A DNA stretch of 63,734 nt, counting the filler. It is 7 parts of 7 records of this genome, joined end to end, with 100 filler letters (N's around TTAATTAATTAA, not from the genome) between each part and the next. Parts side by side here need not be neighbours in the genome. Positions count along the whole stretch, not along the records: positions 22,351 to 40,415 come from SRR31156797_18194; 6 more parts are not named here. One strand, written 5' to 3'. Within the stretch, counting starts at the first letter, position 1. Each line of letters starts with the position of its first letter. Made by a program: the position numbers and the translations under genes. This document shows, in pieces, positions 22,351 through 40,415 of this stretch. Below the pieces are notes generated by a model that was not told the DNA's origin, did not search any database, and saw nothing but the letters and a program-made list of their open reading frames with translations.

Positions 22351-23010
22351 GTGGATGCCGCTCATTTCGTAGATGCTTATCAAGTTTATGCGTCCCTGGA
22401 AAAGCAGATTGCCTCCTCCAGTGTGTTCATCATCAACAAAACGGATACGGCATCACGGGAAAAGATTGAAGAAACCAAAAAAATTATTGCCCGGTTTCAT
22501 CCTGAACCCCTTTTCTTTGAAACCACTTATGCGGATATCCCGCTGGAACGTTTTCTGGAACTGGATGCGGGAGGAAAATCTCCGTCAGCGCCTTTGAAGG
22601 GTCTCTCTTCGGACAGACCCAAGTTATCGGATGCGGAACTTGATCAGTTCCTGGACGATTTGCTCGACAGCCCGGACCTTGAGATCACGCCACCGGATAT
22701 GCTCATGTCGGTGGGGTACCGGTGGAAGGGCAACGACATCAGTGAAATAGAAAAAATTGCGGATGCTCTTCCATCTTCCGTTGTTCGGGCCAAAGGGTTT
22801 GTGGAAGATGAGACCGGTATGCATATTTTCAATTATGTCATGGGCGACTGGACCATGGAAAAAACGGATATTTCCCGCGATCGCATCAAGCACGAGAACA
22901 TTCTGGTTTTTATTGGGCCGCCCGAATCCATGGCAGGAATTGAGACCGCATCCGAAACCGGATCCTGGTCAAGCCTGGGGGTATTTCAGCCCTACTCGGA
23001 GGAATCATAA
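22351..23010 (+). CDS. CobW/COG0523 family metallochaperone GTPase, C-terminal part (5' truncated)
   Basis: VDA...QI...IINKTD (G4 NKxD); CobW_C features VVRAKGFV and LVFIG. Confidence 0.8.
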   Translation: MDAAHFVDAYQVYASLEKQIASSSVFIINKTDTASREKIEETKKIIARFHPEPLFFETTYADIPLERFLELDAGGKSPSAPLKGLSSDRPKLSDAELDQFLDDLLDSPDLEITPPDMLMSVGYRWKGNDISEIEKIADALPSSVVRAKGFVEDETGMHIFNYVMGDWTMEKTDISRDRIKHENILVFIGPPESMAGIETASETGSWSSLGVFQPYSEES

Positions 23011-23068
23011 TGATCACGGTAAATGAATAGGATTTGGCAAAAACTATAATTCAAGAAATGGGTTGATC

Positions 23069-23995
23069 ATGACTGAAGCCAATTCGTTTGATATGATTAT
23101 CATCGGTACGGGTCCTGCCGGTTTGACGGCCGCCCTTTACGGGCAGCGGTTGGGACTCCGTTGTGTTGTATTCGGTGATATTCCCGGGGGGAATTTGTAC
23201 ATGGTTGAGAACCTGGCTAATTTTCCGGGGTTTCCCGGAGGGATACCGGGAACCGAATGGGGGATTAAAACCTTTCAACAGGTCCAGACCGAAGGTGCCA
23301 TGTTTACCATGGGTCGTCTGGAATCCCTGGAACAAGACGGAAACGGTTTTTCCGGGACGGACGTTAACGGTATCCGGTATTCGGCGCCTTGCGCCATTGT
23401 GGCAAGCGGGCGGGTTCCCCGAAGACTCCCGGTGACCCATTCGGAAATGAAAGGCGTCAATTTCTGCTCGGTTTGCGACGGCCCTTTGTTCAGGGGAAAA
23501 AACGCCAAGTTGGTGGTTGTGGGCAGTGATAACGCCGCGGCCCAGCACGCCCTCACCCTGTCCGGGATTGCCCATAAGGTGATTGTGGTGTACCGGAGCC
23601 GTGAAATGATAATGGATGCGGCCCACCGGGAACGCATTATGGCCCGGGACAATATCGAGCTGATGCCTGAAACGGAAGTAACCGGGTATGTTGGGCTGGA
23701 CTTGGTGGAAGCACTGAAAATTAGGACGCCATCCGGGGATGCGGAAACGATTTCCGTGGATGGCGTTTTCCTGGCCATCGGGTGGTCCCCCAATACGGCG
23801 ATGATCAAACCATTCGTTGAAACCATTGATGGGGGATACCTTAAAACCGATGAAAAATTGATGACGTCCATCCCCGGGATGTTTGCCGCCGGAGATGTAA
23901 GGGACACCGATCTCTACCAGGTGTTGACCGGTTGTGCGGATGGGGCCAGGTGTGCACTCTACGCCTCTGAGTTTATTAAAAGATCCTTGCCTTAA
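23069..23995 (+). CDS. Thioredoxin reductase-like flavoprotein with atypical NAD(P)H-binding motifs
   Basis: IIGTGPAGLTAALY, GVNFCSVCDG redox motif, FLAIG, TSIPGMFAAGDV; GSDNAA replaces GGGxxA and YRSRE replaces HRRxx. Confidence 0.85.
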   Translation: MTEANSFDMIIIGTGPAGLTAALYGQRLGLRCVVFGDIPGGNLYMVENLANFPGFPGGIPGTEWGIKTFQQVQTEGAMFTMGRLESLEQDGNGFSGTDVNGIRYSAPCAIVASGRVPRRLPVTHSEMKGVNFCSVCDGPLFRGKNAKLVVVGSDNAAAQHALTLSGIAHKVIVVYRSREMIMDAAHRERIMARDNIELMPETEVTGYVGLDLVEALKIRTPSGDAETISVDGVFLAIGWSPNTAMIKPFVETIDGGYLKTDEKLMTSIPGMFAAGDVRDTDLYQVLTGCADGARCALYASEFIKRSLP

Positions 23996-24143
23996 CCCGT
24001 CAAATTATATATTTTCTAAATCACATAAACACATTAATAAAAATGGGAATTTTCCGGGATTGTGTTGAACGATTCCTTTGGAGGGGACCGGTTCAGATCC
24101 TGGAAAATCAGCAATTCTTATAAATATGTGATGGAGGTGCCTT

Positions 24144-24497
24144 TTGTCGGATTCAGAAAATATTATTATCGAAGTCATGTACAAGGCGAGTTACTGCCTG
24201 CCCTGTTTGTATATGGATGAAACCGTCCTTGAAATACTTCCCGAATACGACGGATATATCGACTATAGGAGAGTCGATTTCATGCATAGCCCCGGAAAAG
24301 AAAGGTTTTTGGAGATTTCCTGCGAGCTTTTTGGCGAAGAGGCAGTTCGGAAGCATTGCCGTGTTGCGCCGGTTCCGTCCCTTTTTATTGACGGGGAGCT
24401 CTTTTTTGATGCCATACCCCCAATGTTCGAACTGAAAGAGGCCATTGAGGAGGTGCTTGCAAAAAAAGGCTTAAAGCAGGCGGGAGAGTCATCATGA
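24144..24497 (+). CDS. Thioredoxin-fold protein, CxxCxYM (Cys paralog)
   Basis: IEVMYKASYCLPCLYM; cis-Pro segment APVPSLFIDGELFFDAIP; SD GGAGGTG before TTG. Confidence 0.8.
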   Translation: MSDSENIIIEVMYKASYCLPCLYMDETVLEILPEYDGYIDYRRVDFMHSPGKERFLEISCELFGEEAVRKHCRVAPVPSLFIDGELFFDAIPPMFELKEAIEEVLAKKGLKQAGESS

Positions 24498-24793
24498 CAC
24501 CGAGAATCATTCATATCGAAGTACTCCATGAAGGCGCCCATTGAATTCCGTGTGAATACATGGCCAGTCTGGTCGAATCGGTGGTCGCTGGATACGGCGA
24601 AACGGTGCGATGGGAAAAGGTAGTTACCAAAGATCTTACAGGGGCGAAGCGTTTATTGACACTGTCAAAGGAATTGGGTCGTCCCGCACCGGTTCCCTCC
24701 ATATATGTGGATGGCAAGCTTGCTTTTGATAGTACCCCGGGAGGTGACGAACTCAAGGAATTCTTAGACAGACTGATAAATACCGATCCATGA
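24494..24793 (+). CDS. Thioredoxin-fold selenoprotein (UxxC), 99 aa; Sec at TGA 24542-24544
   Basis: ATG 24494 overlaps the upstream stop (ATGA); reads MTPRIIHIEVLHEGAH-TGA-IPCEYMASLV... in frame with ORF 24560-24793; TGA aligns with the first Cys of paralog CLPCLYM. Confidence 0.85.
24545..24578 (+). promoter_or_regulatory. Candidate bacterial SECIS element 1
   Basis: GGCCA-GTC-TGGTC hairpin (24562-24574) with a G-initiated loop 22 nt after UGA; ATTC/GAAT could form a lower stem. Weak stem. Confidence 0.4.
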
Positions 24794-24878
24794 TTGCCCA
24801 GCAATTTTTTGGACCATACCTGAAGAGACCACCGGAATCGAGACCCCAGCCCCCATAGTTGTTGAGATCATTTTGTAC

Positions 24879-24907
24879 TTGACCCAAACCGAAGGCCTCT
24901 CTATACT
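24879..24907 (+). promoter_or_regulatory. Sigma70-type promoter for the arnT block
   Basis: TTGACC-N17-TATACT. Confidence 0.6.
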
Positions 24908-24998
24908 TTGCGCTCGAAAGTTCACCTTCTTATCACCTATTGCCCCACCTTTCTATAGAAGGTGCGCTTAATTAAGGAATCGAATTTATTCTCCTCTC

Positions 24999-26663
24999 AT
25001 GAAAAAAGTTTCCATTACACTTTTTGTTCTTTTCGTATTTATCTATATCCTTCCCCTTGGTTTCCGACCTCTGACCATTCCGGATGAATCCCGGTATGGG
25101 GAGATCCCCAGGGAAATGTTGAATTCGGGAGATTGGGTGGTTCCCCGCCTGAACGGATTGAAATACTTTGAAAAACCCCCCTTTGGATACTGGGCGAATG
25201 CCGTTAGTATGGCCACGTTCGGTGAAAATGCCTTTGCCTTGCGGATACCATCGGCGCTGTCCGTAATGATTTCCGCCCTCATGATTTTTCTGCTGGTACG
25301 AAAATATTTACCAAGGGGGGCGGCCTCCGTCCTGGCCCCGGCCATCTTTTTAACCTCTCCTCTCGTGCTGGCCATAGGCCACATCAGTCTTCTGGACAGC
25401 CTGCTTTCCATGCTGTTAACCGGTTCTCTGGTTTGCTTCTTCTTTGCGCACATGGCTGAAAATATGCGGCGGAAGGCGCTTTTTCTCGCTTTCATGGGGG
25501 TATTCTGCGGACTGGCTTTTCTTACCAAGGGATTCCTGGCCTTCGCCGTACCGGTACTGGCGGTGGTGCCGTTTCTGCTCTGGGAGGGCCGTTATAAAGA
25601 TTTATTCAGAATACCATGGATTCCCATGATAACGGCCCTTGTGATCGTTTTGCCCTGGTCTCTGATGATCCATCTTCGCGAAGGGGATTTCTGGAACTAT
25701 TTTTTCTGGACGGAGCATGTGGCAAGATTTTTAGAACCGGTCCGGGGACAACATCCCAAGCCTTTTTGGTATTTTCTACCTGTCCTGGTGGGTGGTGCGC
25801 TGCCATGGATGGTTCAAAGTCCGGCTGCCATCCCCATGGTTCTCAAATTCCAAATGAAAAAACCGCTCATACGTTTTGCCATGTGCTGGTTCTTTTTCCC
25901 CTTTCTTTTTTTCTCCGTGTGCAGCGGTAAACTTATCCCGTATATCCTGCCGTGTTTTCCTCCCTTGGCAATGGTTTTTGCCATCGGTCTTGCCGGATAC
26001 TTTGAAGCCGGAAAAAAACGGGCTTTTTCCGTTTCCGCCTGGGCTCTGGCCATCTTTATCGGTCTCGGGGGTCTTTTTTTTCTGGTCTCCGGCCTAGTGC
26101 AACTGAACTGGGACGTCTTTGAGGCGACCAGGATTTATGATATTGACGAAAGGCGTAAATGGCTGCTGGGTTCCCTGGGGGCCCTTTTATGGGCTTTTCT
26201 GGTGATTTGGTCCACCCGGATGAAAGACTACCGGAAAAAATTGGCTTTTTACTGCTCCGCTTTCCTGGCGTTTTTTTTTATGGCGAATTTTGCCGTTCCC
26301 AACAGTGCCATGGATCGCAGAACGCCAGGAAAACTTCTTGAGCGCAATCTTTCAAGGGCGTCCCCCGATGCCATACTGGTATCCAATGACAATGTGATTC
26401 GTGCCGTCTGCTGGTTTTTCAAACGGGATGATGTGAAAGTACTGGAAAAAGCCGGCGAACTCACCTATGGTTTGAAACATGACCACAACAAACCGGTGAA
26501 ATTTCTGACTGTTGACGCGTTAAGGACAATAATCCGGGAAAACGAAGGGAAACGTCCGGTGATTTTGGTTTTGATCAGGGATCACCATGACAACTACAGG
26601 GACCACTTACCCGCTCCCATCTTTATGGATACCGATAACCATTTCATCTTTGCGGTCTATTAA
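24999..26663 (+). CDS. arnT: ArnT/GT83 family phospholipid-carrier-dependent glycosyltransferase
   Basis: PDESRYGEIPREM..SGDWVVPRLNGLKYFEKPP.GYW; FLTKGF; EH..RF; H..PFWYF; KLIPYILPCF.P. Confidence 0.85.
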   Translation: MKKVSITLFVLFVFIYILPLGFRPLTIPDESRYGEIPREMLNSGDWVVPRLNGLKYFEKPPFGYWANAVSMATFGENAFALRIPSALSVMISALMIFLLVRKYLPRGAASVLAPAIFLTSPLVLAIGHISLLDSLLSMLLTGSLVCFFFAHMAENMRRKALFLAFMGVFCGLAFLTKGFLAFAVPVLAVVPFLLWEGRYKDLFRIPWIPMITALVIVLPWSLMIHLREGDFWNYFFWTEHVARFLEPVRGQHPKPFWYFLPVLVGGALPWMVQSPAAIPMVLKFQMKKPLIRFAMCWFFFPFLFFSVCSGKLIPYILPCFPPLAMVFAIGLAGYFEAGKKRAFSVSAWALAIFIGLGGLFFLVSGLVQLNWDVFEATRIYDIDERRKWLLGSLGALLWAFLVIWSTRMKDYRKKLAFYCSAFLAFFFMANFAVPNSAMDRRTPGKLLERNLSRASPDAILVSNDNVIRAVCWFFKRDDVKVLEKAGELTYGLKHDHNKPVKFLTVDALRTIIRENEGKRPVILVLIRDHHDNYRDHLPAPIFMDTDNHFIFAVY

Positions 26664-26702
26664 GAATAAGGACGGCTGAAATTAAAACTGACTGATAACA
26701 CA

Positions 26703-27929
26703 ATGGAAATCGAGCTTCAACGAAAAATTGACAGGATCGCAGGCAAAGCAATTTGCCGACTGCTTTCCCTGTTTCCTCGAAAGAAAGATAACGCGGGGAT
26801 TACAACCTCATCGCCAAATATTCTGGTTATACTCCTCTCCGAAATGGGGAGCCTTGTGCTGGCCCACCCCATGTTCACATATTTGAAAAAAAATCATCCC
26901 GGCGGGGAAATCTTTGTACTGGTGTTTGAAAAGAACAGAGAATGCCTGGAAACCCTGAAGCTGGTTCCCAAAAGGAACATTTTGACAGTCAATGGGGATT
27001 CGTTCACGGCATTGGTAAAGGATAGTATCCGTTTCATATTCCGGATGCGAAAAGAAAAAATTCATGCGGTAATTGACTGTGAACTCTTTTCAAGGATCAG
27101 CAGCATTTACGCATTTCTAAGCGGTGCCGGGTTGCGTGTGGGATTTCATCCCCATACCCAGGAGGGCCTTTACAGGGGCGGTTTTATTAATCGGCCCGTT
27201 CTCTACAACCCCTACCGCCATATATCCAGACAGTTTGTGGCTTTGGCCCAGGCAACGGAAAATGGGAATGACTTCCCCATGGTAAAACGAAACGTGGATG
27301 CGGATATTTTTTGTATCCCAACCCTGAAGCCGGATGCGGATCAACAGGAAGACTTGGAGAACCGGCTGAAAAGCGATTTTCCGGAAACAATCGGAAAAGA
27401 ACTGGTCCTGCTTTATCCGGGGGGCGGCCTGCTTCCCATAAGAGCATGGCCTTTGAACAATTTTTGCCGAATTGCCATGAACCTGCTTGAAAAAGGGTAT
27501 ACCGTGGGTATTATCGGAATGAAAGAGGATGCACCCCTGGCGGAACTCATCTCGTCACGGTGTCAAAGCAAATATTGTATTGATCTAACCGGTTATACCA
27601 GAAACATCATGGAGTTGATCACTCTTTTTCATTTTGCATCCCTACTCATCACCAACGATGGGGGGCCTGGGCATTTTGCTTCGTTGACGCCGATTCCGTC
27701 CATAATTTTCTTCGGCCCGGAAACCCCGGATCTGTATGGTCCCTTAGGTGAAAAGGCTGTAAGTCTTTATGAACCATTGCCCTGTTCTCCTTGCCTTACC
27801 GCCTATAACCACAGAAAATCTCCCTGTGACGGGAACAACGTCTGCCTTGAAGCCATTGGCCCGGAAGAAGTGTTTGAAAAGGCCGGTGAATTGCTTAAAA
27901 GAAACAGCATTTCTCATATCATCTCATGA
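26703..27929 (+). CDS. Glycosyltransferase family 9 (heptosyltransferase-like)
   Basis: LSEMGSLVL, IDLTG, LITNDGGPGHFAS, FGPE.P, CSPC...C....C tail. Confidence 0.85.
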   Translation: MEIELQRKIDRIAGKAICRLLSLFPRKKDNAGITTSSPNILVILLSEMGSLVLAHPMFTYLKKNHPGGEIFVLVFEKNRECLETLKLVPKRNILTVNGDSFTALVKDSIRFIFRMRKEKIHAVIDCELFSRISSIYAFLSGAGLRVGFHPHTQEGLYRGGFINRPVLYNPYRHISRQFVALAQATENGNDFPMVKRNVDADIFCIPTLKPDADQQEDLENRLKSDFPETIGKELVLLYPGGGLLPIRAWPLNNFCRIAMNLLEKGYTVGIIGMKEDAPLAELISSRCQSKYCIDLTGYTRNIMELITLFHFASLLITNDGGPGHFASLTPIPSIIFFGPETPDLYGPLGEKAVSLYEPLPCSPCLTAYNHRKSPCDGNNVCLEAIGPEEVFEKAGELLKRNSISHIIS

Positions 27930-30079
27930 ACAGACCCCTGTATTTCAATCATTCAGCAATCTCGTGGAGCTGGAACCAGCGTTACCGCTTTTTCAAGTTC
28001 GGCATGGTGGGCGTCAGTGGTATCGTCATTAATCAGGCGGTCATCTGGATGTGTTACGCCCATGTGTTCACGACCGTTCAGAACCTTTCTTTACGTCTCA
28101 ACCTGTCCATGGCGGTCGGAATTTTGTTGAGCATGACCAACAATTTCCACTGGAACCGCCGGTGGACCTGGAAGGATCGCGAGCGTGCGCAAAAACTGCC
28201 CATTGTTCATCAGTACCTGCAGTACGCCGCTGCCAACTGGGTAGCCATCGTGATGCAGGTGACCATCACCAATCTGCTCACACGGTGGATGCCCTACCTG
28301 ATGGCCAATATGTTCGGCATCAGTGTGGCATGTGTGGCCAACTTTATTTTGAATGACCTGTGGACCTACCGCCATGTGAACACCGAGGGGATCAACCCCC
28401 AAAACAAAAACCTGGAGCGCGCGGTGCAGGCGGTGCCGCTGGCCATCAGCGGACTCATTTTCGCTTTGTGCACCTATCTGTATGGTCTGGCTTCTCTGCA
28501 CATTCTACGTAACGGGGATGAATTGGTGTACATGCACATCACGCGCGTGACCGGTATGGCCAAACAGTGGCTGCCCTTGCAGGGCATTCCGGGTATGCGA
28601 AACACCAAACCGCCTCTGCTGTTCTGGCAGGGGCTGGTGAGTACGGATTGGGGAAATCACTGGTCGGTGGTAGCGTTGCGCTGGCCCAGCGTGGTGTGGA
28701 CTTTCGGTACGGCGCTGCTCTGCGGCCTGCTCGGGTGGCGACTGTCCGGGCGTGATGTATTCAAGGGGGTGCTGGCGGCGCTTTTCTATCTGGCCTTTTT
28801 CAGCACCTACCGTTATGGACGGCCATATCTTACCAATCCACCTGAAACATTCTGGGTGTTCGCGTGCTTCTTCACCCTGCTGTGGTGGAAGCCGCGATCC
28901 TTCGATTCGCGATTCCTTTTCCCGACCATCCTGGGTGTGCTGGCAGGCATGGCGCTCTTGACCAAAAGTTTCGCCCAACTACTCCCCATCGGCGTGGGAT
29001 TGTCATGCTGGCACCTGCATGTGCGGGGGTGGGGGGGCCTGGCCTCATTCGTGCGTAAGTCATTTTCGGGGATCGTTTGGGCCGCTCTGGTTTCGCTGAG
29101 CATGTTCTCCTTGTGGTTCCTGTTGGATCCGGAACCCGGTGCCATCTGGCGCGAATTCGTGGTGGGGGAAAATGTGGGCAAAATGGCGGGCAGCGTGGGC
29201 TCCTGGTTCGCTGGGTTGTTGTGGAACGGCGACACTGTCTGGTCCCTTGCCGGCAGCTGGTTCTTTAACGCCGGTCTCTTGGCCTTTCCCTTGTTCAGTT
29301 TGATGGTGGAATGCTGGAAACACCGTCGCACCTTGTCCCATGAGGAGCGGCTGCTGTGGATCTGGGTGTTTGCCATTTTCATCGTCTTCTGCATTCCCAG
29401 TCAGCGGAGCGGACGTTATTTGCTGGAAGGCATGCCTGCGCTGGCGGTGTTGTTGGCGACGCGTTGCCATCATGTTGGGCGCTACGCCTTCGTGTTGACC
29501 CTGGCCGGCGTCATTGCGGTACTGCTGTCCCTGGGATGGATTTCATTCTTACTGGCCAACGAGGTAGGCATACAGGCTTTCCCCTGGTGGCATTTTCCCC
29601 TGGTGGTTGCTGCCATCGCCTTTGCCGTGACCGCCATCGCACGGCCGCCATGGACCGCCATGTGTGCACCAATTGCAGCACTGTCGGTATTCCTGGCGCT
29701 GTCCAGCTTTTTGTCTGTTTTTGATGCGCCGCTGGGAACTTACGACTCTGCTGTCGTCAAGGCCACCGCTGATCGTGTGGTGTGGGCACCGGAGAAATTT
29801 CGCTCGAAGGCGGAAAATCATCGCTTCCTGCTGCCTCTGGCGGTGGTGCGGGGCTACCCCGCCGGGGGGAATGTACCAGCCGATCGTGGGCCCGATGACT
29901 TGATGGTGATTCAGCGGCCCCTTGATGCCCCTGCGCCTGCCGGTGCCATGGGTAGCCGCATCAATATCACCAGTCGCCACAAGGCATGGCAGATCCGGGA
30001 AATGGCCACCGGCAATGTGAAGAAACACCTGTTCGCCCGTGAGTGGATCGTCCCCGCGGGTTCGTTGCCGGCGCGCTGA
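27926..30079 (+). CDS. GtrA-like flippase domain fused to ArnT/PMT-like GT-C glycosyltransferase
   Basis: N-terminal RFFKFGMVGVSG...NNFHWNRRWTW...NFILNDLWTY (GtrA); then NGDELVY, RNTKPPLLFWQ and many TMs. Confidence 0.75.
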   Translation: MNRPLYFNHSAISWSWNQRYRFFKFGMVGVSGIVINQAVIWMCYAHVFTTVQNLSLRLNLSMAVGILLSMTNNFHWNRRWTWKDRERAQKLPIVHQYLQYAAANWVAIVMQVTITNLLTRWMPYLMANMFGISVACVANFILNDLWTYRHVNTEGINPQNKNLERAVQAVPLAISGLIFALCTYLYGLASLHILRNGDELVYMHITRVTGMAKQWLPLQGIPGMRNTKPPLLFWQGLVSTDWGNHWSVVALRWPSVVWTFGTALLCGLLGWRLSGRDVFKGVLAALFYLAFFSTYRYGRPYLTNPPETFWVFACFFTLLWWKPRSFDSRFLFPTILGVLAGMALLTKSFAQLLPIGVGLSCWHLHVRGWGGLASFVRKSFSGIVWAALVSLSMFSLWFLLDPEPGAIWREFVVGENVGKMAGSVGSWFAGLLWNGDTVWSLAGSWFFNAGLLAFPLFSLMVECWKHRRTLSHEERLLWIWVFAIFIVFCIPSQRSGRYLLEGMPALAVLLATRCHHVGRYAFVLTLAGVIAVLLSLGWISFLLANEVGIQAFPWWHFPLVVAAIAFAVTAIARPPWTAMCAPIAALSVFLALSSFLSVFDAPLGTYDSAVVKATADRVVWAPEKFRSKAENHRFLLPLAVVRGYPAGGNVPADRGPDDLMVIQRPLDAPAPAGAMGSRINITSRHKAWQIREMATGNVKKHLFAREWIVPAGSLPAR

Positions 30080-30227: not shown

Positions 30228-30301
30228 CTTCAAAAATAGTTACGCTGCGAAAAAGGAATTTCTTATGATTAAGATACTTAAATGTGATTCTCAGGCTAAC
30301 C

Positions 30302-31277: not shown

Positions 31278-31562
31278 ATGACAAAGAAGGTGCTCGTGGA
31301 TGTACTCTTGACCGATTTCAACCAGTGAATTGCGTGTGTCTATATGGCGGAATCGGTAAAGGTTTTACCGAAAGAAATCCAAGATATTATAGAGGTTAAT
31401 GAATGGGATATGCGAACCCGTGAAGGTGTGGAACGTTTCAGAGAACTGAAAGCGAAATCCCTCCCGAGTGTCGCACTGGATGGCGATCTCGTCTATGAAT
31501 CCATTATTCCGGGCCAGGAAGAGTTGATTGAAGAACTCCAACGGCGGTACCGGGAAAAATAG
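31278..31562 (+). CDS. Thioredoxin-fold selenoprotein (UxxC), 94 aa; Sec at TGA 31326-31328
   Basis: SD GAGGAG 31266-31271, ATG 31278; MTKKVLVDVLLTDFNQ-TGA-IACVYMAESV... in frame with ORF 31344-31562; cis-Pro segment SLPSVALDGDLVYESIIPG. Confidence 0.88.
31353..31371 (+). promoter_or_regulatory. Candidate bacterial SECIS element 2
   Basis: 8-bp perfect stem TCGGTAAA-GGT-TTTACCGA with a G-rich loop 32 nt downstream of the in-frame UGA. Confidence 0.6.
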
Positions 31563-32590: not shown

Positions 32591-33349
32591 ATGATTGATT
32601 TTAAAATGCTGGAAGATGCGTCGGAAAAAACTGAAAAGTCGTTTCAAATGCTGTTGAAAACCTACGAAAAACTTCCCGAGACCATTTGTGGTTGCGACAA
32701 TATCGGTGTCTGTTGTGTGTCCTTGCCTGAAATGACGGTTCTGGAAGCCCTATCGTGGATCGGAACCATTACGGAATTGCCTCCCGGTGAACGGACGGTA
32801 CTTTTGCGAAAATTCGTGTATTTCTATCTGACCAATCCCATCCGCCGCCCCGGTTGCCCCTTTCGCAGGGAAGGATCCTGTACCATCTATTCCCGAAGAC
32901 CGTTTGCATGCAGGGCGTACGGTTTGTGGAGCCGGGAAAACGGAGCGGAACAGACCAATAAAAACCGTGAACTTCAGAAAACCATGCTTGAAATGTGGAA
33001 ACAGTTTGGCGTGACCATCCCGGCGAAATGCCTGGTAACCGAGATGGATTACTGCCGTGAGGTGACAACCCGTGAATCGTCGTCCATATCGGACAACGAT
33101 CTGCTCAAGGTTTTGGAGGAGGTATATCTGCTCAGCACACCCGTGGCCGACCTGCAGCAATCGTTTGAGAACGAGTATCAGTCAGATTTCAGCTTTCTCA
33201 TCACATCCCTGATTTTGGGTCAGAAAAAAGCATTCCTAGGCAAATATGCCGTTGTAAAAGAAATGGTCACCAAAGGATCGGAAACGCGCCTTGACAAATT
33301 TTTGAAAGCAGCGTCTTCGGAGGCATGGCAACTTAATTTCCCCAAATGA
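32591..33349 (+). CDS. YkgJ/CxxCxxCC family cysteine-cluster protein
   Basis: ICGCDNIGVCC, GCPF, CTIYSRRPFACRAYG. Confidence 0.8.
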   Translation: MIDFKMLEDASEKTEKSFQMLLKTYEKLPETICGCDNIGVCCVSLPEMTVLEALSWIGTITELPPGERTVLLRKFVYFYLTNPIRRPGCPFRREGSCTIYSRRPFACRAYGLWSRENGAEQTNKNRELQKTMLEMWKQFGVTIPAKCLVTEMDYCREVTTRESSSISDNDLLKVLEEVYLLSTPVADLQQSFENEYQSDFSFLITSLILGQKKAFLGKYAVVKEMVTKGSETRLDKFLKAASSEAWQLNFPK

Positions 33350-33536: not shown

Positions 33537-34487
33537 ATGTTTCAGTTAAGCACGGAGCAAAAAGTGTGTGAGATAGGCGGTGTGAAGTTTGGTGGCCAGC
33601 CGGGCGATTACCCTTGTGTATGTGTCAGCTCGATTTTTCAGAAGGGCGACAAGGTTTTTACCGGGAAACGTAAGGAAGGTTTTGATGAAGCGCGGGCCGA
33701 AATGCTTTTGAAAACCCAGGACAAGTATACGGAAGATTGCGGTGTCCCCGGGATGGCGGATATCGTCGCCAATACCGGCAAGGAGTTTCAATCTTTTATT
33801 GATTTTGTCGTGGAAAAAAGCGACATGCCCTTTTGTATCGACGCCTGGGTTATGAAACCCAAACTGGAAGGCGCGGCTTATTGTGCCGAAAAAGGTCTGC
33901 TGGACCGGATGTTCTACAACAGCCTGACCGTCTGGGAAGCGGATCTGGAAACCGAGATTAAGGAAATTGCCGATATCGGCGTTAAGCATGTGCTTCTGGT
34001 GTCCTTTGACCAGGAAGACCAGATGCCTTCCGGACGTGTGACCGGCACACAGAAACTTCTGGATGCCATTGAGAAAGTAGGCGCCGAATTCGAGAGCATC
34101 TTTGTGGACAGTTCCGTCATGAATGGCCCGGCTACGGCCTTTTGCGGCGTTGCCAACAAGATGATCAAGGAAAAATGGGGATTTCCCACCGCGAGCGCAC
34201 CCAGCAACGGAAGCTACATGGATTTGAAACGCTTTAAGGAGATGTGGGATTTCAAAGGATGGTCTTCCACGGATGCTGCTTTGGAAGCGCTTTCCGCCTT
34301 CAATTATCACGACATGATCTTTTCCGGTCCCATGGCCGGCGCAACACGTATCCTGCCCGCAGTGGCTGAGGCTGAGGCATTTCTGGCAACCATGGTATTC
34401 GCCGAGACCAAAAAGCTGCCTGTTTGTGAAACGCATCCTTTGTACAAGCTCTTCCCGGATTTCGTGGAGCAACTGAAGGGAATGTAG
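33537..34487 (+). CDS. MtrH/MtgA-like methylcorrinoid:tetrahydrofolate(pterin) methyltransferase
   Basis: MF...EQKV.EIGGVKFGGQPG.YP...SIF..GDK; PFCID; YNS; KEKWGFPT.SAP.N; SD GAGGAGG. Confidence 0.85.
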   Translation: MFQLSTEQKVCEIGGVKFGGQPGDYPCVCVSSIFQKGDKVFTGKRKEGFDEARAEMLLKTQDKYTEDCGVPGMADIVANTGKEFQSFIDFVVEKSDMPFCIDAWVMKPKLEGAAYCAEKGLLDRMFYNSLTVWEADLETEIKEIADIGVKHVLLVSFDQEDQMPSGRVTGTQKLLDAIEKVGAEFESIFVDSSVMNGPATAFCGVANKMIKEKWGFPTASAPSNGSYMDLKRFKEMWDFKGWSSTDAALEALSAFNYHDMIFSGPMAGATRILPAVAEAEAFLATMVFAETKKLPVCETHPLYKLFPDFVEQLKGM

Positions 34488-34578
34488 TCATCAGGCATCA
34501 TCAAAAAGGCAAGTGAAAAGCCAGGAAACAGATGAAGATAAGGAACCAAACAACAAAAATTTCGAAAGGAGCTCAAGG

Positions 34579-35631
34579 ATGGCGGAACTTACACCCAAAG
34601 AACGCGTGATGCGTTTGCTCAGAAAAGAACCCATTGACATCATGCCGTTTTTCAGTGGTATGGGGATGGTGGTCATGCCGGGGATCAAAGAGGCGGGTTT
34701 CAACTTCCCCACGATTCATACCAGTGCGGAAAGAATGGCCTGGTCGGCAATCCATTCGGCAAGGCTGATGAATTTTGACTGCGTGGTGATTCCCTATGAC
34801 ATGACCATGGAGTCCGAGGCCATGGGTAACACCATCAGTCTGTACGAAGAATCCGAGGATATTCTCTATCCCACGATTCCCAACAAAATGTGGTCTACCC
34901 TGGACGAAGTGGTTGTCCCGGACGATATTCTGGAGCGGGGTCGTCTTCCGATCCTCAAGGATGCCATCAAGATTATCAAAGAGGAAGCTCCTGATCTTCC
35001 CATCGGATGCTGGCAGCTCGGTCCTTTTACCCAGTCCGGTCAGATTCTGGAACTTGACCTGATGTTGAAAGGCGTTTTCAAACAGAAGGAAAAAGTAGGA
35101 GAAGTTCTTGACCTCATGACCGATATGATCATCAAGATCGGTAATTATCTCCAGGAAAGCGGATGTGATTATATCGTCTTGAGGGAGCCCGGTGTTGCGG
35201 CGGATCTCCTGAGCCCCAGAACCTTCAAGGAATTCATTCAACCCAGGCTGACGAAGATTTTGAATGCCTGGGAATCCCCCAAACTGCTCCACATCTGCGG
35301 TCAAACGGAACCGCTGCTCCCCATGATGGCGCAATGTGGCGCCGACGGTATTACCGTTGACATCAAGTGTGATGTGAGGAAGGGTCGTGAGATATTGGGC
35401 CCGGATGTCCTCTTTATGGGCAACATTGACACCTATACCATGACCTGCGATCCAAAAACACCGGTACAAGCGTCCATCGACCATATCAAAGATATGATCG
35501 ACGGCGGTGTCGATGCCGTCATGCCCGGCTGCGATCTCTGGCCGGACATTAAGGAAGAGAATATGAAAGCCTGTGTGGATACATGCCACGAGTATGGTAC
35601 TAAGCCCAGCCCGGCGGTGGGTCGCCTTTAG
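34579..35631 (+). CDS. MtaA/CmuA (UroD-fold) zinc methyltransferase
   Basis: MAELTPKER, LGPFT, Zn-ligand pattern LLHICG ... MPGCDL; ATG 34579 behind AAGGAG (ORF track starts at 34513). Confidence 0.85.
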   Translation: MAELTPKERVMRLLRKEPIDIMPFFSGMGMVVMPGIKEAGFNFPTIHTSAERMAWSAIHSARLMNFDCVVIPYDMTMESEAMGNTISLYEESEDILYPTIPNKMWSTLDEVVVPDDILERGRLPILKDAIKIIKEEAPDLPIGCWQLGPFTQSGQILELDLMLKGVFKQKEKVGEVLDLMTDMIIKIGNYLQESGCDYIVLREPGVAADLLSPRTFKEFIQPRLTKILNAWESPKLLHICGQTEPLLPMMAQCGADGITVDIKCDVRKGREILGPDVLFMGNIDTYTMTCDPKTPVQASIDHIKDMIDGGVDAVMPGCDLWPDIKEENMKACVDTCHEYGTKPSPAVGRL

Positions 35632-35696: not shown

Positions 35697-36365
35697 ATGG
35701 CAACACAAGAAGAACTGTTAGAAAAATTGAAAGAAGGCGTTATCGAGTATGAAGATGATACGGTCAAAGAGGCTTCACAGCAGTGGCTTGATGAGGGATA
35801 TGTAGCCCTGGACGGTATTATGGACGGCCTGGCCGCCGGTATGGAAGTTGTTGGCGATCTCTATGACAAAAATGAGTATTTCGTGCCTGAAGTTCTGATG
35901 TGTGCCGATGCCCTGTATGGCGGCCTTGATATCCTGCGTCCGCACGTACCTAAAGATTCAGAAGGCGTCAATGCACAGGTGGTTATCGGAAGTATTCAGG
36001 GCGATGTCCATGATATCGGTAAAAACCTTGTGAAGATGATGTTTGACGTTGCCGGTTGGGAAGTGCATGACCTGGGTCGTGACGTACCGCTGGAAAACTT
36101 CGTGGAAAAACAGCTTAAGACCGATTCCGAAGTGGTGGCCATGTCTGCCATGATGACCACGACCATGCTGGGAATGAAAAAGGTTATCAACATGATCAAG
36201 GAGAAGAATCCCGATGTGGCGATCATGCTGGGCGGCGCACCCGTAACCAAGGACGTGGCCAACCTTTTCGGCGCTGACGGTTACGCTGAATCCGCTGGTA
36301 ACGCCGTATCCGAAGGTATCAAAATGATCGGTCGTCTGCGTGAAATGCGGGCCAAAGAAAAATAA
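35697..36365 (+). CDS. Methyltransferase cognate corrinoid protein
   Basis: GLAAGM..VG.LY...EYFVPE cap domain; GDVHDIGKN (DxHxxG); SAMMTTT; MLGGAP. Confidence 0.93.
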   Translation: MATQEELLEKLKEGVIEYEDDTVKEASQQWLDEGYVALDGIMDGLAAGMEVVGDLYDKNEYFVPEVLMCADALYGGLDILRPHVPKDSEGVNAQVVIGSIQGDVHDIGKNLVKMMFDVAGWEVHDLGRDVPLENFVEKQLKTDSEVVAMSAMMTTTMLGMKKVINMIKEKNPDVAIMLGGAPVTKDVANLFGADGYAESAGNAVSEGIKMIGRLREMRAKEK

Positions 36366-36409
36366 TAGAGGGAAAATCAAGGGAAACTTTTCCTTAGAAA
36401 ACTTAATCC

Positions 36410-36446
36410 CCCCCTATCAGAAGCTTTTATGGCTTCTGATAGAGGG
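36410..36446 (+). terminator. Hairpin after the corrinoid protein gene
   Basis: CTATCAGAAGC-TTTTATG-GCTTCTGATAG perfect 11-bp stem. Confidence 0.55.
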
Positions 36447-36752
36447 TGTTTCGAATCAGAAAATGTTTTTAACAAATAACGGTATCTCAAAATAGAGACC
36501 TAACGATTACGCCGTCTGACTGTTTTATATTATGAGTGTATTCGAGGCACGATGATACCTCGGGTTCGCTAGGATTTATCCCATTTAGACTGAGGTCTGC
36601 TGTAAGAAAGCTAATTTTTGTTGCTTTTCATTAGGGCTGGATTGCTAACTTTTATTTCCGAGAAAAAACGGAACCACCCGGCGGCCGCTATTTATTGACT
36701 GGCATATTCGTGTAGATCGCATCATAATTTTATTTGAGGAGGATTATATCGC

Positions 36753-38807
36753 ATGAGTGACGAAAAGGTCATGGTCATTTTTCAGCCTTCGGGACGAAGA
36801 GGTGAAGTTCCTAAAGGCGTTAATATTATTGAGGCTTCTCGGCTTCTGGGTGTTGATATCGAGGCGCTTTGCGGAGAGAAGAAAGTTTGCGGAAAATGCA
36901 TTGTGCGGGTTGAGGAAGGCCGTTTTGAAAAATATGGCATCACCTCCAGCATGGACCATTGTTCCCCGTGGGCCGTAGAAGAAGAAAAATTCATCAATCA
37001 GGAACGCCAAGAGAAGGGTTTTCGTCTGGGTTGTGTGGCCACCATTGAAGACGACGTCCTGGTGTTTGTTCCGGAAGAATCGAGAGCCGGAAAACAGGTG
37101 GTCAGCAAGGCGGCCCGCGATATCGATATTGAATTCAATCCGGCTATTAAGCTCTACACCGTGCAGGTTGACAAACCCACATTTGAAGACCCCACCGGCG
37201 ATTTTGAAAGGGTCTGCAATGCATTGGAGCAGAACTATGCGCTCACGGATCTGACCATTGATATCGAAACCCTGCGTGAGCTTCCCGACGCCCTTCGTAA
37301 CGGAAAATGGGAGTGTACGGTGAGTGTCTGGAACGATAAGGAAATCATTCGGGTCCGCTCCGGTAAGGTGGAGCACGCCTACGGCATGGCCATTGATGTG
37401 GGGACCACCACGGTAGCGGGATATTTTTGTGATCTCACCACCATGGAAGTTATCGACACCGTATCCATGATGAACCCCCAGTGTAAATACGGTGAAGACG
37501 TCATGGCAAGGATTACCTATCACATGATGACAGAAGGCGGGTTGAAGCGCATGAGCGACGACATCATCGAGGGTCTGAATGAACTCCTCGCAAAAGCCAT
37601 CAAACAGACCTTCCCGCCCATGAAGAAGAAAAAAGGGAAAAAGGGCGAAAAAGCCGAGATGGTGGAAGTCCCGGAAGAGGGCAAGACATATCTCCGCCTT
37701 AAAATGGAAGATATCGAAGACATTACCATCGGTTTTAATACGGCCATGCACCATATCCTTCTCGGGCTTAACCCCGAGTATGTGGGCCTCGCGCCTTTCC
37801 CACCGGTCATTCACCACAGTATGAATATCAGGGCCAGGGATCTGGGTGTTAAGATCAACCCGTCTTCATACATGTTCGTCCTTCCCAACGAGGCCGGATT
37901 TGTGGGCGCTGACAACGTTGGCGTGCTCATTGCTGAAGCCCCCTACAAGGGCGAAGAAAATCAGTTAATCATCGATATCGGTACCAACGGCGAGCTGGTG
38001 TTGGGTAACCGCCACAAACTGATATCTTCCTCTTGCGCCACCGGTCCCGCCCTTGAGGGCGCCCAGTTGGCTTACGGCATGCGTGCGGCGCCAGGCGCCA
38101 TCGAGCGCATCACCATTGACCCCGATACCAAGGAAGTGGATTACAAGGTTATCGGTCGGGATGCCTTTAGGAAATTTTCCGATCCCAAGGAGATGGGTGT
38201 TAAAGGGATTTGCGGTTCCGGTATTCTGGATGTGCTGGCCGAACTCTACAGTTCCGGTGTCATCACCAAAACCGGCGCTTTCGCCAAAAAGAAACTGAAG
38301 GACCATCCACGTTTCCGCAAGAACGCTGATACGAAACAGCCTGAATTTGTTCTGGCCTGGGCTGAGGAATCGAGCATCGACCAGGATATCGTGATCACCC
38401 AGAAGGATGTCCGACAGATCCAGCTTGCCAAGGGCGCGCTCTATGCCGGGTGTAAACTGATGGTCAAACGGATGGGTCTTGACAAGGTGGATACGGTGAA
38501 GATTGCCGGTGCCTTCGGAACCCATGTGGATCGCGAAAAGGCTCTGACCATGGGTCTGTTCCCCGACTGCGAAATCGAGATGATCAAGGGGATTGGTAAC
38601 GCGGCTGGTGATGGTTGCCGCGCAGCACTTCTGAATACCAAAAAACGGACTGAAGCGGACTGGTGTTCAAGAAACGTGGAATATGTTGAACTGACCGTTG
38701 AACCTACCTTTGAGCAGGACTTTATGGAAGCAATGCAGCTTCCCCATATGACGGATAAATTCCCCCATCTGGAAGGGATTGTCCGTGACGAGATCTTAAA
38801 CCAGTAA
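36753..38807 (+). CDS. ASKHA/DUF4445 reductive activator of corrinoid enzymes (RACE) with N-terminal 2Fe-2S domain
   Basis: CGEKKVCGKC...RLGC; AIDVGTTT; NPQ..YGEDVMARI; GFVGAD; IDIGTNGE; GICGSG; QLAKGA; AGAFG; GNAAG.G. Confidence 0.92.
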   Translation: MSDEKVMVIFQPSGRRGEVPKGVNIIEASRLLGVDIEALCGEKKVCGKCIVRVEEGRFEKYGITSSMDHCSPWAVEEEKFINQERQEKGFRLGCVATIEDDVLVFVPEESRAGKQVVSKAARDIDIEFNPAIKLYTVQVDKPTFEDPTGDFERVCNALEQNYALTDLTIDIETLRELPDALRNGKWECTVSVWNDKEIIRVRSGKVEHAYGMAIDVGTTTVAGYFCDLTTMEVIDTVSMMNPQCKYGEDVMARITYHMMTEGGLKRMSDDIIEGLNELLAKAIKQTFPPMKKKKGKKGEKAEMVEVPEEGKTYLRLKMEDIEDITIGFNTAMHHILLGLNPEYVGLAPFPPVIHHSMNIRARDLGVKINPSSYMFVLPNEAGFVGADNVGVLIAEAPYKGEENQLIIDIGTNGELVLGNRHKLISSSCATGPALEGAQLAYGMRAAPGAIERITIDPDTKEVDYKVIGRDAFRKFSDPKEMGVKGICGSGILDVLAELYSSGVITKTGAFAKKKLKDHPRFRKNADTKQPEFVLAWAEESSIDQDIVITQKDVRQIQLAKGALYAGCKLMVKRMGLDKVDTVKIAGAFGTHVDREKALTMGLFPDCEIEMIKGIGNAAGDGCRAALLNTKKRTEADWCSRNVEYVELTVEPTFEQDFMEAMQLPHMTDKFPHLEGIVRDEILNQ

Positions 38808-38830
38808 CGGGTGAGAATTTGAATCAAACC

Positions 38831-39154
38831 ATGAATGACGCATGTATTACCGTGGATCCCGGAGTGTGTGGTTTTACATGCGTCATCCGGGCGCGGCAAA
38901 CGGAAAAGAGATCGGTTGCCATTGAAATCGTAGGTTCTGAGTGCAAACAGATTAAGCGATTTGCCGGCCGTCTCGAAACCGTTTCTTTACGGGAATTGTT
39001 CATGCCTTTGACCAGCAACCCGGTCTACAAGGCAGCTCAGGCATCGGGTTGCCATGCCTCATGCGCAATCCCTTCCGCGGTCTTGAAGGCCGCGGAGGTT
39101 GCCATGGGCATGGCCGTTGCCCGTCCGGTTAGTTTCGATTTTGATTGTGAATAG
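38831..39154 (+). CDS. DUF6951-like small Cys-rich protein
   Basis: VDPGVCGF, SEC..I, CHASC.IP..VLKA.EV..G. Confidence 0.65.
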   Translation: MNDACITVDPGVCGFTCVIRARQTEKRSVAIEIVGSECKQIKRFAGRLETVSLRELFMPLTSNPVYKAAQASGCHASCAIPSAVLKAAEVAMGMAVARPVSFDFDCE

Positions 39155-39166
39155 GGGAGGGGTTAA

Positions 39167-39763
39167 ATGCATGTTCCGAAAGTAGTACCCTTCAGGAATG
39201 AAGCGGGCATCTCTCAGACGTTTTTGAGAAGTTTGGAGGAAAACGGAAAAAAATACGGATTAACCTCTATTCTCCCCTTTTCCACTGAAAAGATCAATGT
39301 TGCCGAATGGGTTCATCTTAAGTGCCGTTACGGCTGTCACAATTACAATACCAACTGGTGCTGTCCGCCGGCCACACCGAAACCCGATAAGGTGCGGTCT
39401 ATTCTGGCCGAATATAAAAGAGCACTATTGCTTGAGGGCAGCAAAAGCTGTAAGGATTTTTACCTGAACAATGGCCGAAAAAGAGCGGGGCAGGTACGGT
39501 GCTGGAAAGGAACTTTGAGCATTGAGCGCATGCTGTTCCTTGAAGGTTATTATAAAACCTTCAGCCTTGTGGGAGAGTGCTGCGCATTGTGTAAAGAATG
39601 TGCATTCCCTGAAAGTTGCCGGTTCCCCATGGAAAAACGACCTTCAGTGGAATCATTTTCCATTGATGTCATCGGGACCTTGAAAAATCTGGGCACATCG
39701 CCAACCGTAGCAACCGATAAATCGGGTACTTACAATTACTACGGTATTATTCTTCTTGAATGA
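39167..39763 (+). CDS. DUF2284 family metal-binding protein
   Basis: KCRYGC..Y..NWCCPP; C..C..C...C.FP...RPSVE...IDV. Confidence 0.85.
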   Translation: MHVPKVVPFRNEAGISQTFLRSLEENGKKYGLTSILPFSTEKINVAEWVHLKCRYGCHNYNTNWCCPPATPKPDKVRSILAEYKRALLLEGSKSCKDFYLNNGRKRAGQVRCWKGTLSIERMLFLEGYYKTFSLVGECCALCKECAFPESCRFPMEKRPSVESFSIDVIGTLKNLGTSPTVATDKSGTYNYYGIILLE

Positions 39764-39893
39764 TAAATGTGTTACACCATTCCCTCCCAAATAAAGTTTT
39801 TTCTTTTATTTTAAATATTCGATAATTTATTTATTCAAATTCATTATTTTGCTTGACTTGATAATGAATGTTCCTTTAACATATTTTCTTGAA

Positions 39894-40054
39894 TCCAGGT
39901 GCTCTTAACGAGCTTAATAGGGAACCCCGTTAGAATCGGGGATGGACCCGCCGCTGTGATCGGGGACGAAACCTGTAATATGCCACTGTCTGAAGGTTGA
40001 GGATGGGAAGGCGCAGGGAGTAGGATGATCCGTTAGTCAGAAGACCTGCCTGGA
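39894..40054 (+). ncRNA. Cobalamin (B12) riboswitch
   Basis: AGGTG...TTAATAGGGAA...CCCGCCGCTGT...GCCACTG...GGGAAGGC...AGTCAGAAGACCTGCC; P1 TCCAGG/CCTGGA. Confidence 0.93.
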
Positions 40055-40115
40055 GAGCACGATACCCTTTCGAGGACAAAAAGGGCGCCGTATGACTCTG
40101 AGGATAAAAATGGGT

Positions 40116-40157
40116 AATCCCCGGGTCGGAATTTTTCCGATCCGGGGATTTTTTTTT
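40116..40157 (+). terminator. Intrinsic terminator, likely riboswitch expression platform
   Basis: AATCCCCGGGTCGGA...TCCGATCCGGGGATT stem (about 15 bp) followed by a T-run. Confidence 0.8.
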
Positions 40158-40162
40158 GCAGG

Positions 40163-40321
40163 CCGGGTTGGTGTGTGCCCACGATCGAAGACGACATCCT
40201 GGTGTTCGGTACGGAAGAGAACAGTGGAAAGGACTTAATGGAAACGATGCAAATGCCCAATATTACGGATAAAATTCCGCATCTTGAGTGGAATGTCCGT
40301 GAAGAGATATTGAATCAGTAA
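40163..40321 (+). pseudogene. Internally deleted relic of an ASKHA/RACE gene
   Basis: Frame reads PGWCVPTIEDDILVFGTEENSGKDLMETMQMPNITDKIPHLEWNVREEILNQ*, matching RLGCVATIEDDVLVFVPEE and QDFMEAMQLPHMTDKFPHLEGIVRDEILNQ* of 36753-38807. Confidence 0.85.
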
Positions 40322-40415
40322 TGGGAGAAAGGAGGTGCCGACTTAAGACATTAGATTCATGCGTAAATCCTTAATAAGGTCAACCGTAAGAAAGGAGAGT
40401 CCAAATGGCTAAGCA

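Follow-up and report, generated by a model that had tools for sequence, protein, structure and literature searches.

In sediments, methylated compounds are turned over anaerobically in large part by corrinoid-dependent methyltransferases. In the bacterial three-component corrinoid methyltransferase systems (O-demethylase/MtgABC/Mto type) an MtrH-family protein, a URO-D-fold protein, a corrinoid protein and the reductive activator RACo are encoded in one operon. The delivery, reduction and repair of the corrinoid in bacteria are partly known; RACo is characterized, and DUF1638 is genetically implicated but unexplained. Here we describe an 18,065 bp contig of a sulfate-reducer-like bacterium, corresponding to positions 22351–40415 of a 63,734-nucleotide stretch of DNA (the window, by whose positions its features are numbered). 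The contig has the same four components in one operon and adds a module of selenocysteine (Sec)-containing thioredoxin (Trx)-like proteins, a TSCPD fusion protein and a head-only SMC-type ATPase, which is in none of the described systems of this type found in our literature searches.

The module has two parts. The first is a triad of genes coding for a TSCPD/pseudo-phosphoesterase fusion, the Trx-like protein TrxU2 and the head-only SMC ATPase. The second consists of two to four more Trx paralogs with a C/UxxCxYM motif, a thioredoxin reductase (TrxR)-like flavoprotein, CobW-type GTPases and a YkgJ-like protein. Comparison across genomes and metagenomes shows that the module is real and under selection as a unit, and that it accompanies B12-handling genes and a single clade of URO-D methyltransferases. 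We tentatively favor (probability roughly 0.45) an accessory role in the activation, conditioning, loading or maintenance of the corrinoid cofactor or corrinoid protein, not one that acts on the methyl substrate.

Conservation of the triad and linkage to corrinoid methyltransferase genes

The three triad genes keep their order. TrxU2 lies directly 5′ of the ATPase gene in all ten genome loci found through the ATPase, preceded by the TSCPD fusion gene in 8/10, and in further genome loci from a Desulfobacterota sample it is directly 5′ of the ATPase gene wherever the sequence covers it. A metagenome scan seeded with the TSCPD fusion yielded 80 loci; TrxU2 is present in all 71 that have at least 330 bp downstream of the fusion gene, and TrxU2 and the ATPase are both present in all 47 that have at least 1.4 kb. 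Judged by these counts, the gene order is conserved far beyond chance.

Linkage to methyltransferase genes is similarly consistent. Genes for MtrH, URO-D, the corrinoid protein or RACo are present in 14 of 21 genome loci, including all 11 that extend at least 7 kb in either direction; in each of the remaining seven a contig end falls within 5 kb. Close methyltransferase genes are present in 9 of the 11 metagenome loci with 7 kb on both sides; the other two have more distant URO-D genes, in one case directly 5′ of the TSCPD fusion gene. Across at least five different gene orders the module stays next to genes for MtrH, URO-D, the corrinoid protein and RACo.

Ten of 401 sampled Desulfobacterota genomes encode the ATPase. 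A URO-D protein with at least 54% identity is encoded by nine genomes, all among these ten, and in the tenth the ATPase is on a 2.3 kb contig. Fifteen more of the 401 genomes encode a URO-D protein at 37–51% identity and no ATPase, and module-free methyltransferase operons are common in the Desulfobacterota. The existence of these sister operons ties the module to one URO-D clade and not to B12 use in general.

The linkage extends to a second phylum. Among 401 genomes sampled from the phylum of a metagenome-assembled genome labeled Bacillota, a single one (G791) encodes the ATPase, at 46% identity. Its locus (L098) holds the module and methyltransferase genes within 20 kb, beginning with CobO, CobW, two corrinoid proteins, a URO-D-like gene and several Trx paralogs, continuing with a Cys (HCIPC) form of TrxU1, the TSCPD fusion, TrxU2 (71% identity) and a second Sec paralog, and ending with the ATPase, CobW, a corrinoid protein, RACo, MtrH, URO-D and two DUF6951 genes. 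An earlier sequence-only reading of the contig, made from the letters without database searches, had proposed a system coupling such genes to corrinoid methyl transfer, and homologs of its Trx, SMC-head and TSCPD genes do occur together with corrinoid methyltransferase genes in other genomes, in metagenomes and in a second phylum.

Neighboring genes and the possible role of the module

The genes next to the triad are mostly from one small set of B12- or methyltransferase-linked families (55 of 65 upstream and 47 of 55 downstream neighbors). The gene directly 5′ codes for DUF1638 (24 of 65 loci), a Trx paralog (12), CobO (5), BtuF or BtuF-CbiZ (4), URO-D (4) or an FNR-like protein (3), and that directly 3′ for a YkgJ-like protein (17 of 55 loci), CobW (13) or a Trx (9). 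About half of the loci (51 of 101) have CobW-family genes, and a single locus can have as many as four. According to the available parts of the two papers, DUF1638 mutants of Phaeobacter require methionine, as do mutants in a RamA-like gene whose phylogenetic profile DUF1638 shares (PMC5764234), and the pair was later treated as cobalamin-recharging proteins (PMC12478193).

The neighbors also bear on the notion that the triad does an unrelated redox or ATP-dependent job within a B12 gene island. All carriers found are from two lineages, and the cross-phylum identities (71% for TrxU2, 52% for RACo and 43% for MtrH) would fit transfer of an island as a unit. However, the linkage outlasts at least five rearrangements, a change of phylum and changes in the nearby methyltransferase genes, and most neighbors on both sides are B12- or methyltransferase-linked, so that synteny without shared function is very unlikely. 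Since DUF1638, CobO, BtuF/CbiZ and CobW are the commonest neighbors of the triad, a role with the cofactor is favored over disulfide chemistry at the level of the substrate.

In such a role, the flavoprotein would feed a thiol/selenol relay running through the Trx paralogs to the Cys center of the TSCPD domain, and the ATPase, dimerizing under ATP, would gate or scaffold a conditioning, loading or reactivation step on the corrinoid. The module would act alongside RACo and DUF1638, and the methyltransferases would thereby keep a supply of cob(I)amide. Its competence for redox chemistry is suggested by the thioredoxin-like model of TrxC, the C/UxxC motifs of four paralog groups and the four invariant cysteines of the TSCPD domain.

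A further proposal is that the triad, the Trx paralogs and CobW constitute a hitherto unrecognized ATP- and selenol-dependent machine for corrinoid processing or loading, using Co-Se or Co-S chemistry with a logic like that of CblC/CblD/MMAA, or else a cassette that replaces a substrate-activating methyltransferase; we consider this possible, if doubtful. The replacement alternative arises from a hint in published genomes: in Desulfofundulus kuznetsovii TPOSR, D. thermosubterraneus and D. australicus the available text describes the central MtaB/MtaC part of the methanol methyltransferase (MT) operon as replaced (an 'incomplete MT operon'; PMC10907483), by a gene set that is a strong lead for the same module.

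Several points count against this role with the cofactor. Haft & Tolstoy 2025, the source of the HUIPC family, lies outside the full-text literature searches, which found no description of the module, and may propose another role. Thiol/disulfide couples are too weak as reductants to take Co(II) to Co(I), and any redox role of the module would therefore be in another step. The strongest point comes from the second-tier operons. Eight such loci, from genomes without the ATPase, have URO-D, corrinoid protein and RACo genes (and MtrH in seven), often with DUF6951, DUF2284, CobO, CobW or DUF1638, and none of the eight has Trx, TrxR, TSCPD fusion or ATPase genes within 10 kb; corrinoids can thus in general be maintained without it, and these operons are explained at least as well by a role specific to the chemistry or the substrate of a single URO-D clade. 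The TrxR-like gene is near the triad in just 10 of 101 loci. Since the carriers are related to one another and the metagenome loci include plain duplicates, the counts overstate independence.

The main rival is a role in the chemistry of the substrate, which could take the form of a redox arm. In it, the Trx paralogs, fed by the TrxR-like flavoprotein, would act reductively on a methyl donor containing sulfur or selenium, such as a methylated disulfide or sulfoxide, or would clear a thiol product; the Zn-motif URO-D protein could then transfer the methyl group to the corrinoid protein, from which it would go on to tetrahydrofolate. In its favor, all nine genomes with the URO-D clade of the contig have the ATPase, the eight sister loci lack the module, and the URO-D protein keeps the HxC...C motif of the thiol-methylating MtaA. 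Some loci also add a MIP channel, an SsuA/NMT1-type ABC transporter or extra URO-D paralogs, and in the available text the Desulfofundulus gene set is at the MtaB/MtaC place of its operon (PMC10907483). We nevertheless regard this role as unlikely, though well short of negligible, because no conserved substrate-specific enzyme (Msr, dimethyl sulfoxide reductase or similar) accompanies the module, its tightest neighbors are B12-handling genes, no MtaA-Trx fusion is present among eight longer proteins, and the ATPase, the pseudo-phosphoesterase and the several CobW copies are left without a role. The specific chemistries put forward in the sequence-only reading, reduction of methylated disulfides and a Trx methyl carrier, are not favored by this context.

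Individual loci have further genes near the module. L001–L003 have BtuF/ABC uptake genes and a 653-residue NfnB/GltD-like iron-sulfur flavoprotein (L001 12938–14899 and relatives). This protein, in which a GltD-like flavoprotein part is combined with two 4Fe-4S elements, a NuoF-type region and a DPD-type domain, recurs next to CobW and MtrH (24 of 101 loci) and is a candidate for an electron donor. In L106 (7426–9459 and 15017–18152) a fusion of a BtuF-like protein to CbiZ (cobinamide amidohydrolase) is divergent from the triad, with a CbbQ/NorQ-type AAA_5 and VWA pair nearby that is CobS/CobT-like. L004 has two GCS2-family glutamate-cysteine-ligase-like genes (12266–14493), L084 a MIP channel adjoining CobW (7394–8236; MIP is in 5 of 101 loci overall) and L083 an SsuA/NMT1-type ABC transporter (2358–4933). 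The GCS2, MIP and transporter genes may hint at a small thiol or small neutral substrate.

Thioredoxin-like proteins, selenocysteine and the TrxR-like flavoprotein

Two of the three thioredoxin-like genes of the contig, TrxU1 and TrxU2, have an in-frame TGA at codon 17 (Table 1), and its conservation indicates that both codons encode selenocysteine. Of 20 genome loci scanned, 18 keep the TrxU2 TGA and two have no sequence at the site. A hairpin 27–45 nt past the TGA is present in 17/17 aligned sequences with compensatory change in two pairs; both TGA and hairpin are also kept in L098. Cys at the Sec position of TrxU2 is seen in paralogs only. The TrxU1 Sec is kept in eight loci, and Cys takes its place in L098 and in P0400–P0402 (HCMPC/HCVPC), where TrxC is fused in tandem to the Cys form of TrxU1; single-sequence folds show no clear common hairpin for TrxU1. 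SelB is above its cut-off in 4/4 module-carrying relatives. In L098 a second TrxU2-like gene (9705–9950) directly follows the first and has the active site U-A-S-G, in which the resolving Cys is lost and the hairpin kept.

TrxC and TrxU2 are orthologous groups separate from TrxU1, and there are four orthologous groups with the C/UxxCxYM motif in all, two always with Sec and two always with Cys. TrxC appears from its predicted structure to be an ordinary thioredoxin, with a predicted local distance difference test (pLDDT) score of 85.6, thioredoxins as its top PDB matches and a conserved cis-Pro loop region. Fusions of MtaA to a Trx carrying this motif, which the sequence-only reading had suggested seeking, did not turn up among eight longer proteins found; six or seven of these are Trx-Trx tandem fusions. 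One match of 360 residues, on a 1.1 kb contig, looks like an artefact.

The TrxR-like flavoprotein was rightly called atypical in that reading. It keeps the redox CxxC (CSVC) and falls below the TIGR01292 cut-off (237.8 vs 343.45), and at the positions aligned to GGGDxA and HRRDxLRA of two solved TrxRs it has GSDNAA and YRSREMIM, such that it probably does not use NADPH.

The same proteins could be viewed as part of a metal-delivery set, in which CobW, the Trx-fold proteins, TSCPD, YkgJ, DUF2284 and DUF6951 would serve as chaperones that insert Zn into the URO-D protein, or Co or Fe-S into partners, in sulfidic habitats with little free metal. The frequency of CobW-family genes (up to four per locus, in about half of the 101 loci), the many Cys-rich partners and the Met conserved after the CxxC/UxxC motif in all four paralog groups are consistent with delivery of metals. 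We think it rather improbable, given that TrxC models as an ordinary thioredoxin with its cis-Pro loop region conserved, that a TrxR-like reductase is beside the Trx genes in the contig and in several other loci, and that module-free operons have the same Zn-motif methyltransferase family. Still more remote is the idea that the Trx-like proteins are protein-bound methyl acceptors in place of coenzyme M (CoM). Although the URO-D protein is most like methylcobamide:CoM methyltransferases, there is no apparent route by which a methyl group would be removed from Cys or Sec, the CxxC/UxxC pair and adjacent reductase suggest disulfide exchange, and with MtrH a soluble methyl acceptor or donor is already at hand; we give the idea hardly any credence.

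TSCPD fusion and head-only SMC ATPase

The TSCPD domain forms the N-terminal 90 residues of the fusion protein, and its four cysteines (C24, C47, C75 and C81) are invariant among nine orthologs. The predicted structure of the fusion has a pLDDT of 82.7, and Foldseek matches the remainder of the protein to PH1004, SapH, Vps29 and MJ0936 (1e-9 to 1e-6). No His is invariant among the nine orthologs, and the phosphoesterase fold is therefore most likely a non-catalytic scaffold.

PF02463 (SMC_N) covers residues 3–302 of the 326-residue ATPase, the two head halves are contiguous, and the protein aligns end to end with engineered SMC heads (best PDB match 1e69, 6.6e-43). Coiled coil, hinge and zinc hook are all absent. 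Among 13 relatives the P-loop, LSGGE, DE and H positions are invariant, as are C58 and the C-terminal CC. A word search found 868 relatives, the best 120 of which have 64–88% identity and 324–368 residues. Among 1.84 billion representatives there are just three full-length clusters at 50% identity, and the next-best library matches are true SMCs of about 1,100–1,200 residues with the match split in two. A predicted complex of the ATPase with the TSCPD fusion scored 0.02, which speaks neither for nor against binding.

Two other interpretations of these proteins were rejected. An anti-phage defense role was dismissed because in PADLOC only the ATPase head matches, and then to generic models (mad3, 131 bits), with no match for the TSCPD fusion, YkgJ, TrxC or TrxR. 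A Mre11/Rad50 pair was dismissed for want of a catalytic His in the phosphoesterase fold and of a coiled coil in the ATPase.

The ATPase gene is split in two relatives, L010 (7440–8459) and L088 (10001–10979), as two open reading frames (ORFs) or by one internal TGA or frameshift. RACo is also in pieces in L010 (3679–5689) and in L088, and the split genes could reflect decay or assembly error.

The methyltransferase genes

By its domain content the contig carries a corrinoid methyltransferase operon (MtrH, a Zn-motif MtaA-like URO-D protein, corrinoid protein, RACo, DUF6951 and DUF2284), the core of which is of a known kind. None of its methyltransferase proteins reaches a substrate-specific NCBIfam equivalog. 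The MtrH-family protein is under every equivalog cut-off (e.g. MtgA, 149.6 vs 550), the URO-D protein is under that for MtaA (213 vs 400), and the corrinoid protein scores 196.8 with TIGR02370 (cut-off 215.3). The closest match to the URO-D protein is the methylcobamide:CoM methyltransferase MtaA 4ay7 (7.3e-56); LHICG and PGC are common to both, and the HxC...C positions are presumably Zn ligands in each. RACo consists of a 2Fe-2S ferredoxin domain, a linker, a middle region and an ASKHA domain, all four of which are matched in Pfam.

At 387 nt, the spacer that separates the corrinoid protein gene from that for RACo (36366–36752) is unusually long, compared with roughly 70–140 nt in L004 and L010. 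A long inverted repeat seen by eye within it, at ~36410–36447, could be an attenuator that sets the ratio of corrinoid protein to RACo.

DUF2284 matches the C-terminal domains of ArsM/DUF2284 and MbdU selenoproteins, and a selenoproteome review, in its available part, groups several such families with metal handling (PMC13188914). Together with the MIP channels of 5 of 101 loci, this could be taken to mean that the selenol/thiol proteins carry arsenic, mercury or selenium species to or from a corrinoid methyl donor. However, there is no ArsM, MerB or HgcA-type gene in any annotated locus and DUF2284 is present in module-free operons too, and we consider organometal(loid) chemistry highly improbable.

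Organization of the contig

The window is a concatenation in which six N44-TTAATTAATTAA-N44 linkers join pieces differing in GC content from 0.29 to 0.61, and positions 22351–40415 are exactly one contig; genes beyond it are therefore not genomic neighbors. Pfam and NCBIfam searches of the contig bear out each gene call of the sequence-only reading, together with the order and the location of all listed genes on the + strand (Table 1).

Table 1. Features of the contig, in window coordinates.
Feature	Coordinates	Strand	Evidence
CobW/COG0523-type GTPase, 3′ part only	22351–23010	+	PF02492 profile positions 122–175; PF07683 (CobW_C)
TrxR-like low-molecular-weight flavoprotein, divergent NADPH site	23063–23995	+	Pyr_redox_2 7.9e-33
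TrxC, CxxC thioredoxin-fold protein (YCLPCLYM)	24144–24497	+	NF047660 68.8 bits, below cut-off
TrxU1, HUIPC-motif thioredoxin-like selenoprotein	24494–24793	+	TGA 24542–24544; NF047660 139.3 vs cut-off 105
ArnT/PMT-like, GT9 and GtrA-fusion genes	24999–30079	+	Pfam/NCBIfam
TSCPD (4-Cys) domain fused to degenerate metallophosphoesterase fold	30284–31249	+	PF12637; TIGR03905 78.5 vs cut-off 67.7
TrxU2, UxxC thioredoxin-like selenoprotein (QUIACVYM)	31278–31562	+	TGA 31326–31328; hairpin 31353–31371 resembling a selenocysteine insertion sequence (SECIS)
Head-only SMC-type ABC ATPase, 326 aa, ends in invariant CC	31575–32555	+	SMC_N 3e-46
Cys-rich YkgJ-like protein	32591–33349	+	PF03692 20 bits, below cut-off 23 (weak CxxCxxCC match)
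MtrH-family methyltransferase (methyl-corrinoid to pterin)	33537–34487	+	PF02007 5.4e-44
URO-D-fold MtaA-like methyltransferase, HxC...C motif	34513–35631	+	PF01208 1.2e-58; NF004889 246.5 vs cut-off 244
Corrinoid protein (B12-binding_2 + B12-binding)	35697–36365	+	PF02310 5e-27, PF02607 3.7e-20
RACo-type reductive activator	36753–38807	+	PF14574 1e-92; three more RACo domains
DUF6951, Cys-rich	38819–39154	+	PF22263 6.3e-28
DUF2284, predicted metal-binding	39167–39763	+	PF10050 2.4e-43
Cobalamin riboswitch aptamer (39880–40067) and intrinsic terminator (40116–40150)	39880–40150	+	RF00174

The start of the contig cuts the CobW gene, leaving the C-terminal part only. In the close relative L099 the full CobW gene codes for 345 residues, and 5′ of it, just upstream of the point at which the contig breaks, are a Cys-type Trx paralog of the fourth group and a 311-residue URO-D-like gene. 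The other pieces of the window (1–22250 and 40516–63734) range in GC content from 0.29 to 0.61, and the record may be a mixed bin; by eye, an ORF at 41873–42577 resembles an archaeal-type UMP kinase.

The glycosylation genes that separate TrxU1 from the TSCPD fusion are a lineage-specific insertion outside the system. GtrA is present in 3 of 101 loci and PMT and GT9 in two, these being the contig and its closest relatives only, and the GC content is 0.58 at 28–30 kb compared with 0.47–0.50 around. The sequence-only reading had listed this block, in brackets, within the gene order of the system, from which it is now removed.

The cobalamin riboswitch noted in the same reading is real, matching the full length of the RF00174 covariance model with 111.1 bits (gathering score 31.5), but it does not belong to the unit in which it had been listed. 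It is 3′ of the last gene and has its own promoter-like site (39853–39887) and terminator (a 16 bp stem followed by a T run), and it therefore heads the next transcription unit; the listed genes are not under its control. A scan of the contig for promoters and terminators gave background levels except for this terminator, the sole strong one. Downstream of it is a RACo gene remnant (40169–40318; tblastn matches of 7e-13 and 6.5e-6), in which the sequence runs directly from the final part of the ferredoxin domain to the last ~25 residues, and a new ORF starts at 40406, just before the contig end.

Relationship to known systems

The pair of a RamA-like protein (DUF4445/RACo) and DUF1638 found with split methionine synthases (Price et al. 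2018, PMC5764234) resembles the loci described here in that RACo is encoded in the contig and DUF1638 is the gene 5′ of the triad at many other loci. They differ in that the available text of the paper includes no Trx, TSCPD or SMC-like partner and no mechanism for DUF1638, and the contig has no DUF1638.

A matching published gene set is the Desulfofundulus insert, for whose genes the authors state, in the available text, that no function can be proposed (PMC10907483). The listed genes match those of L098 together with the MIP gene of L084; for the ATPases the comparison is with the wording of the paper only. The 'short hypothetical ORFs' of these operons would correspond, by analogy with L098, to thioredoxin-like genes; for two of those in L098 the called ORF is truncated because the Sec codon is read as a stop. 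Two other papers on D. kuznetsovii make no mention of TSCPD, CobW or thioredoxin in the main text, and their supplements may list them. The sequence-only reading knew of no described pathway with this combination of genes; we likewise found no description in the literature, but the gene set itself is listed, uninterpreted, in the available text on Desulfofundulus (PMC10907483). With the module in cultured Desulfofundulus strains, as that text indicates, its function is testable at the bench.

NCBIfam NF047660, the HUIPC-motif thioredoxin-like (seleno)protein, accommodates TrxU1 by both score and motif, whereas TrxC (68.8) and TrxU2 (50.2 bits) are under the cut-off of 105. The available part of a 2026 review lists this selenoprotein family, citing Haft & Tolstoy 2025 (PMC13188914). 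With SMC/Rad50 heads and the Mre11-Rad50/SbcCD complexes the module shares an ABC head and a frequent neighbor with a metallophosphoesterase fold. Unlike SMC and Rad50, the ATPase of the contig lacks coiled coil, hinge and zinc hook; the phosphoesterase fold, instead of resembling Mre11, belongs with YfcE, Vps29 and PH1004 and lacks an invariant His; and no DNA-related gene is linked to the ATPase.

Two further likenesses are of logic only. In the B12-dependent class II ribonucleotide reductases a thioredoxin relay leads to a Cys-rich C-terminal (TSCPD) tail, and the module similarly has TSCPD beside thioredoxins in a B12 setting. CblC, CblD and MMAA are a eukaryotic B12 trafficking set, with which the module has in common that thiol chemistry on cobalamin is accompanied by a G3E-family GTPase and an adenosyltransferase. 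It differs from both in that no ribonucleotide reductase, CblC or CblD homolog was seen with the module.

Compared with these systems, the methyltransferase core and one curated selenoprotein family were already known, and what is new is the module as a conserved unit with corrinoid methyltransferase genes. It brings into the problem of corrinoid upkeep an obligate selenoprotein, an SMC head that naturally has no coil, and an apparently catalytically dead phosphoesterase fold, and it has real potential to be more than a variation on the known methyltransferase systems.

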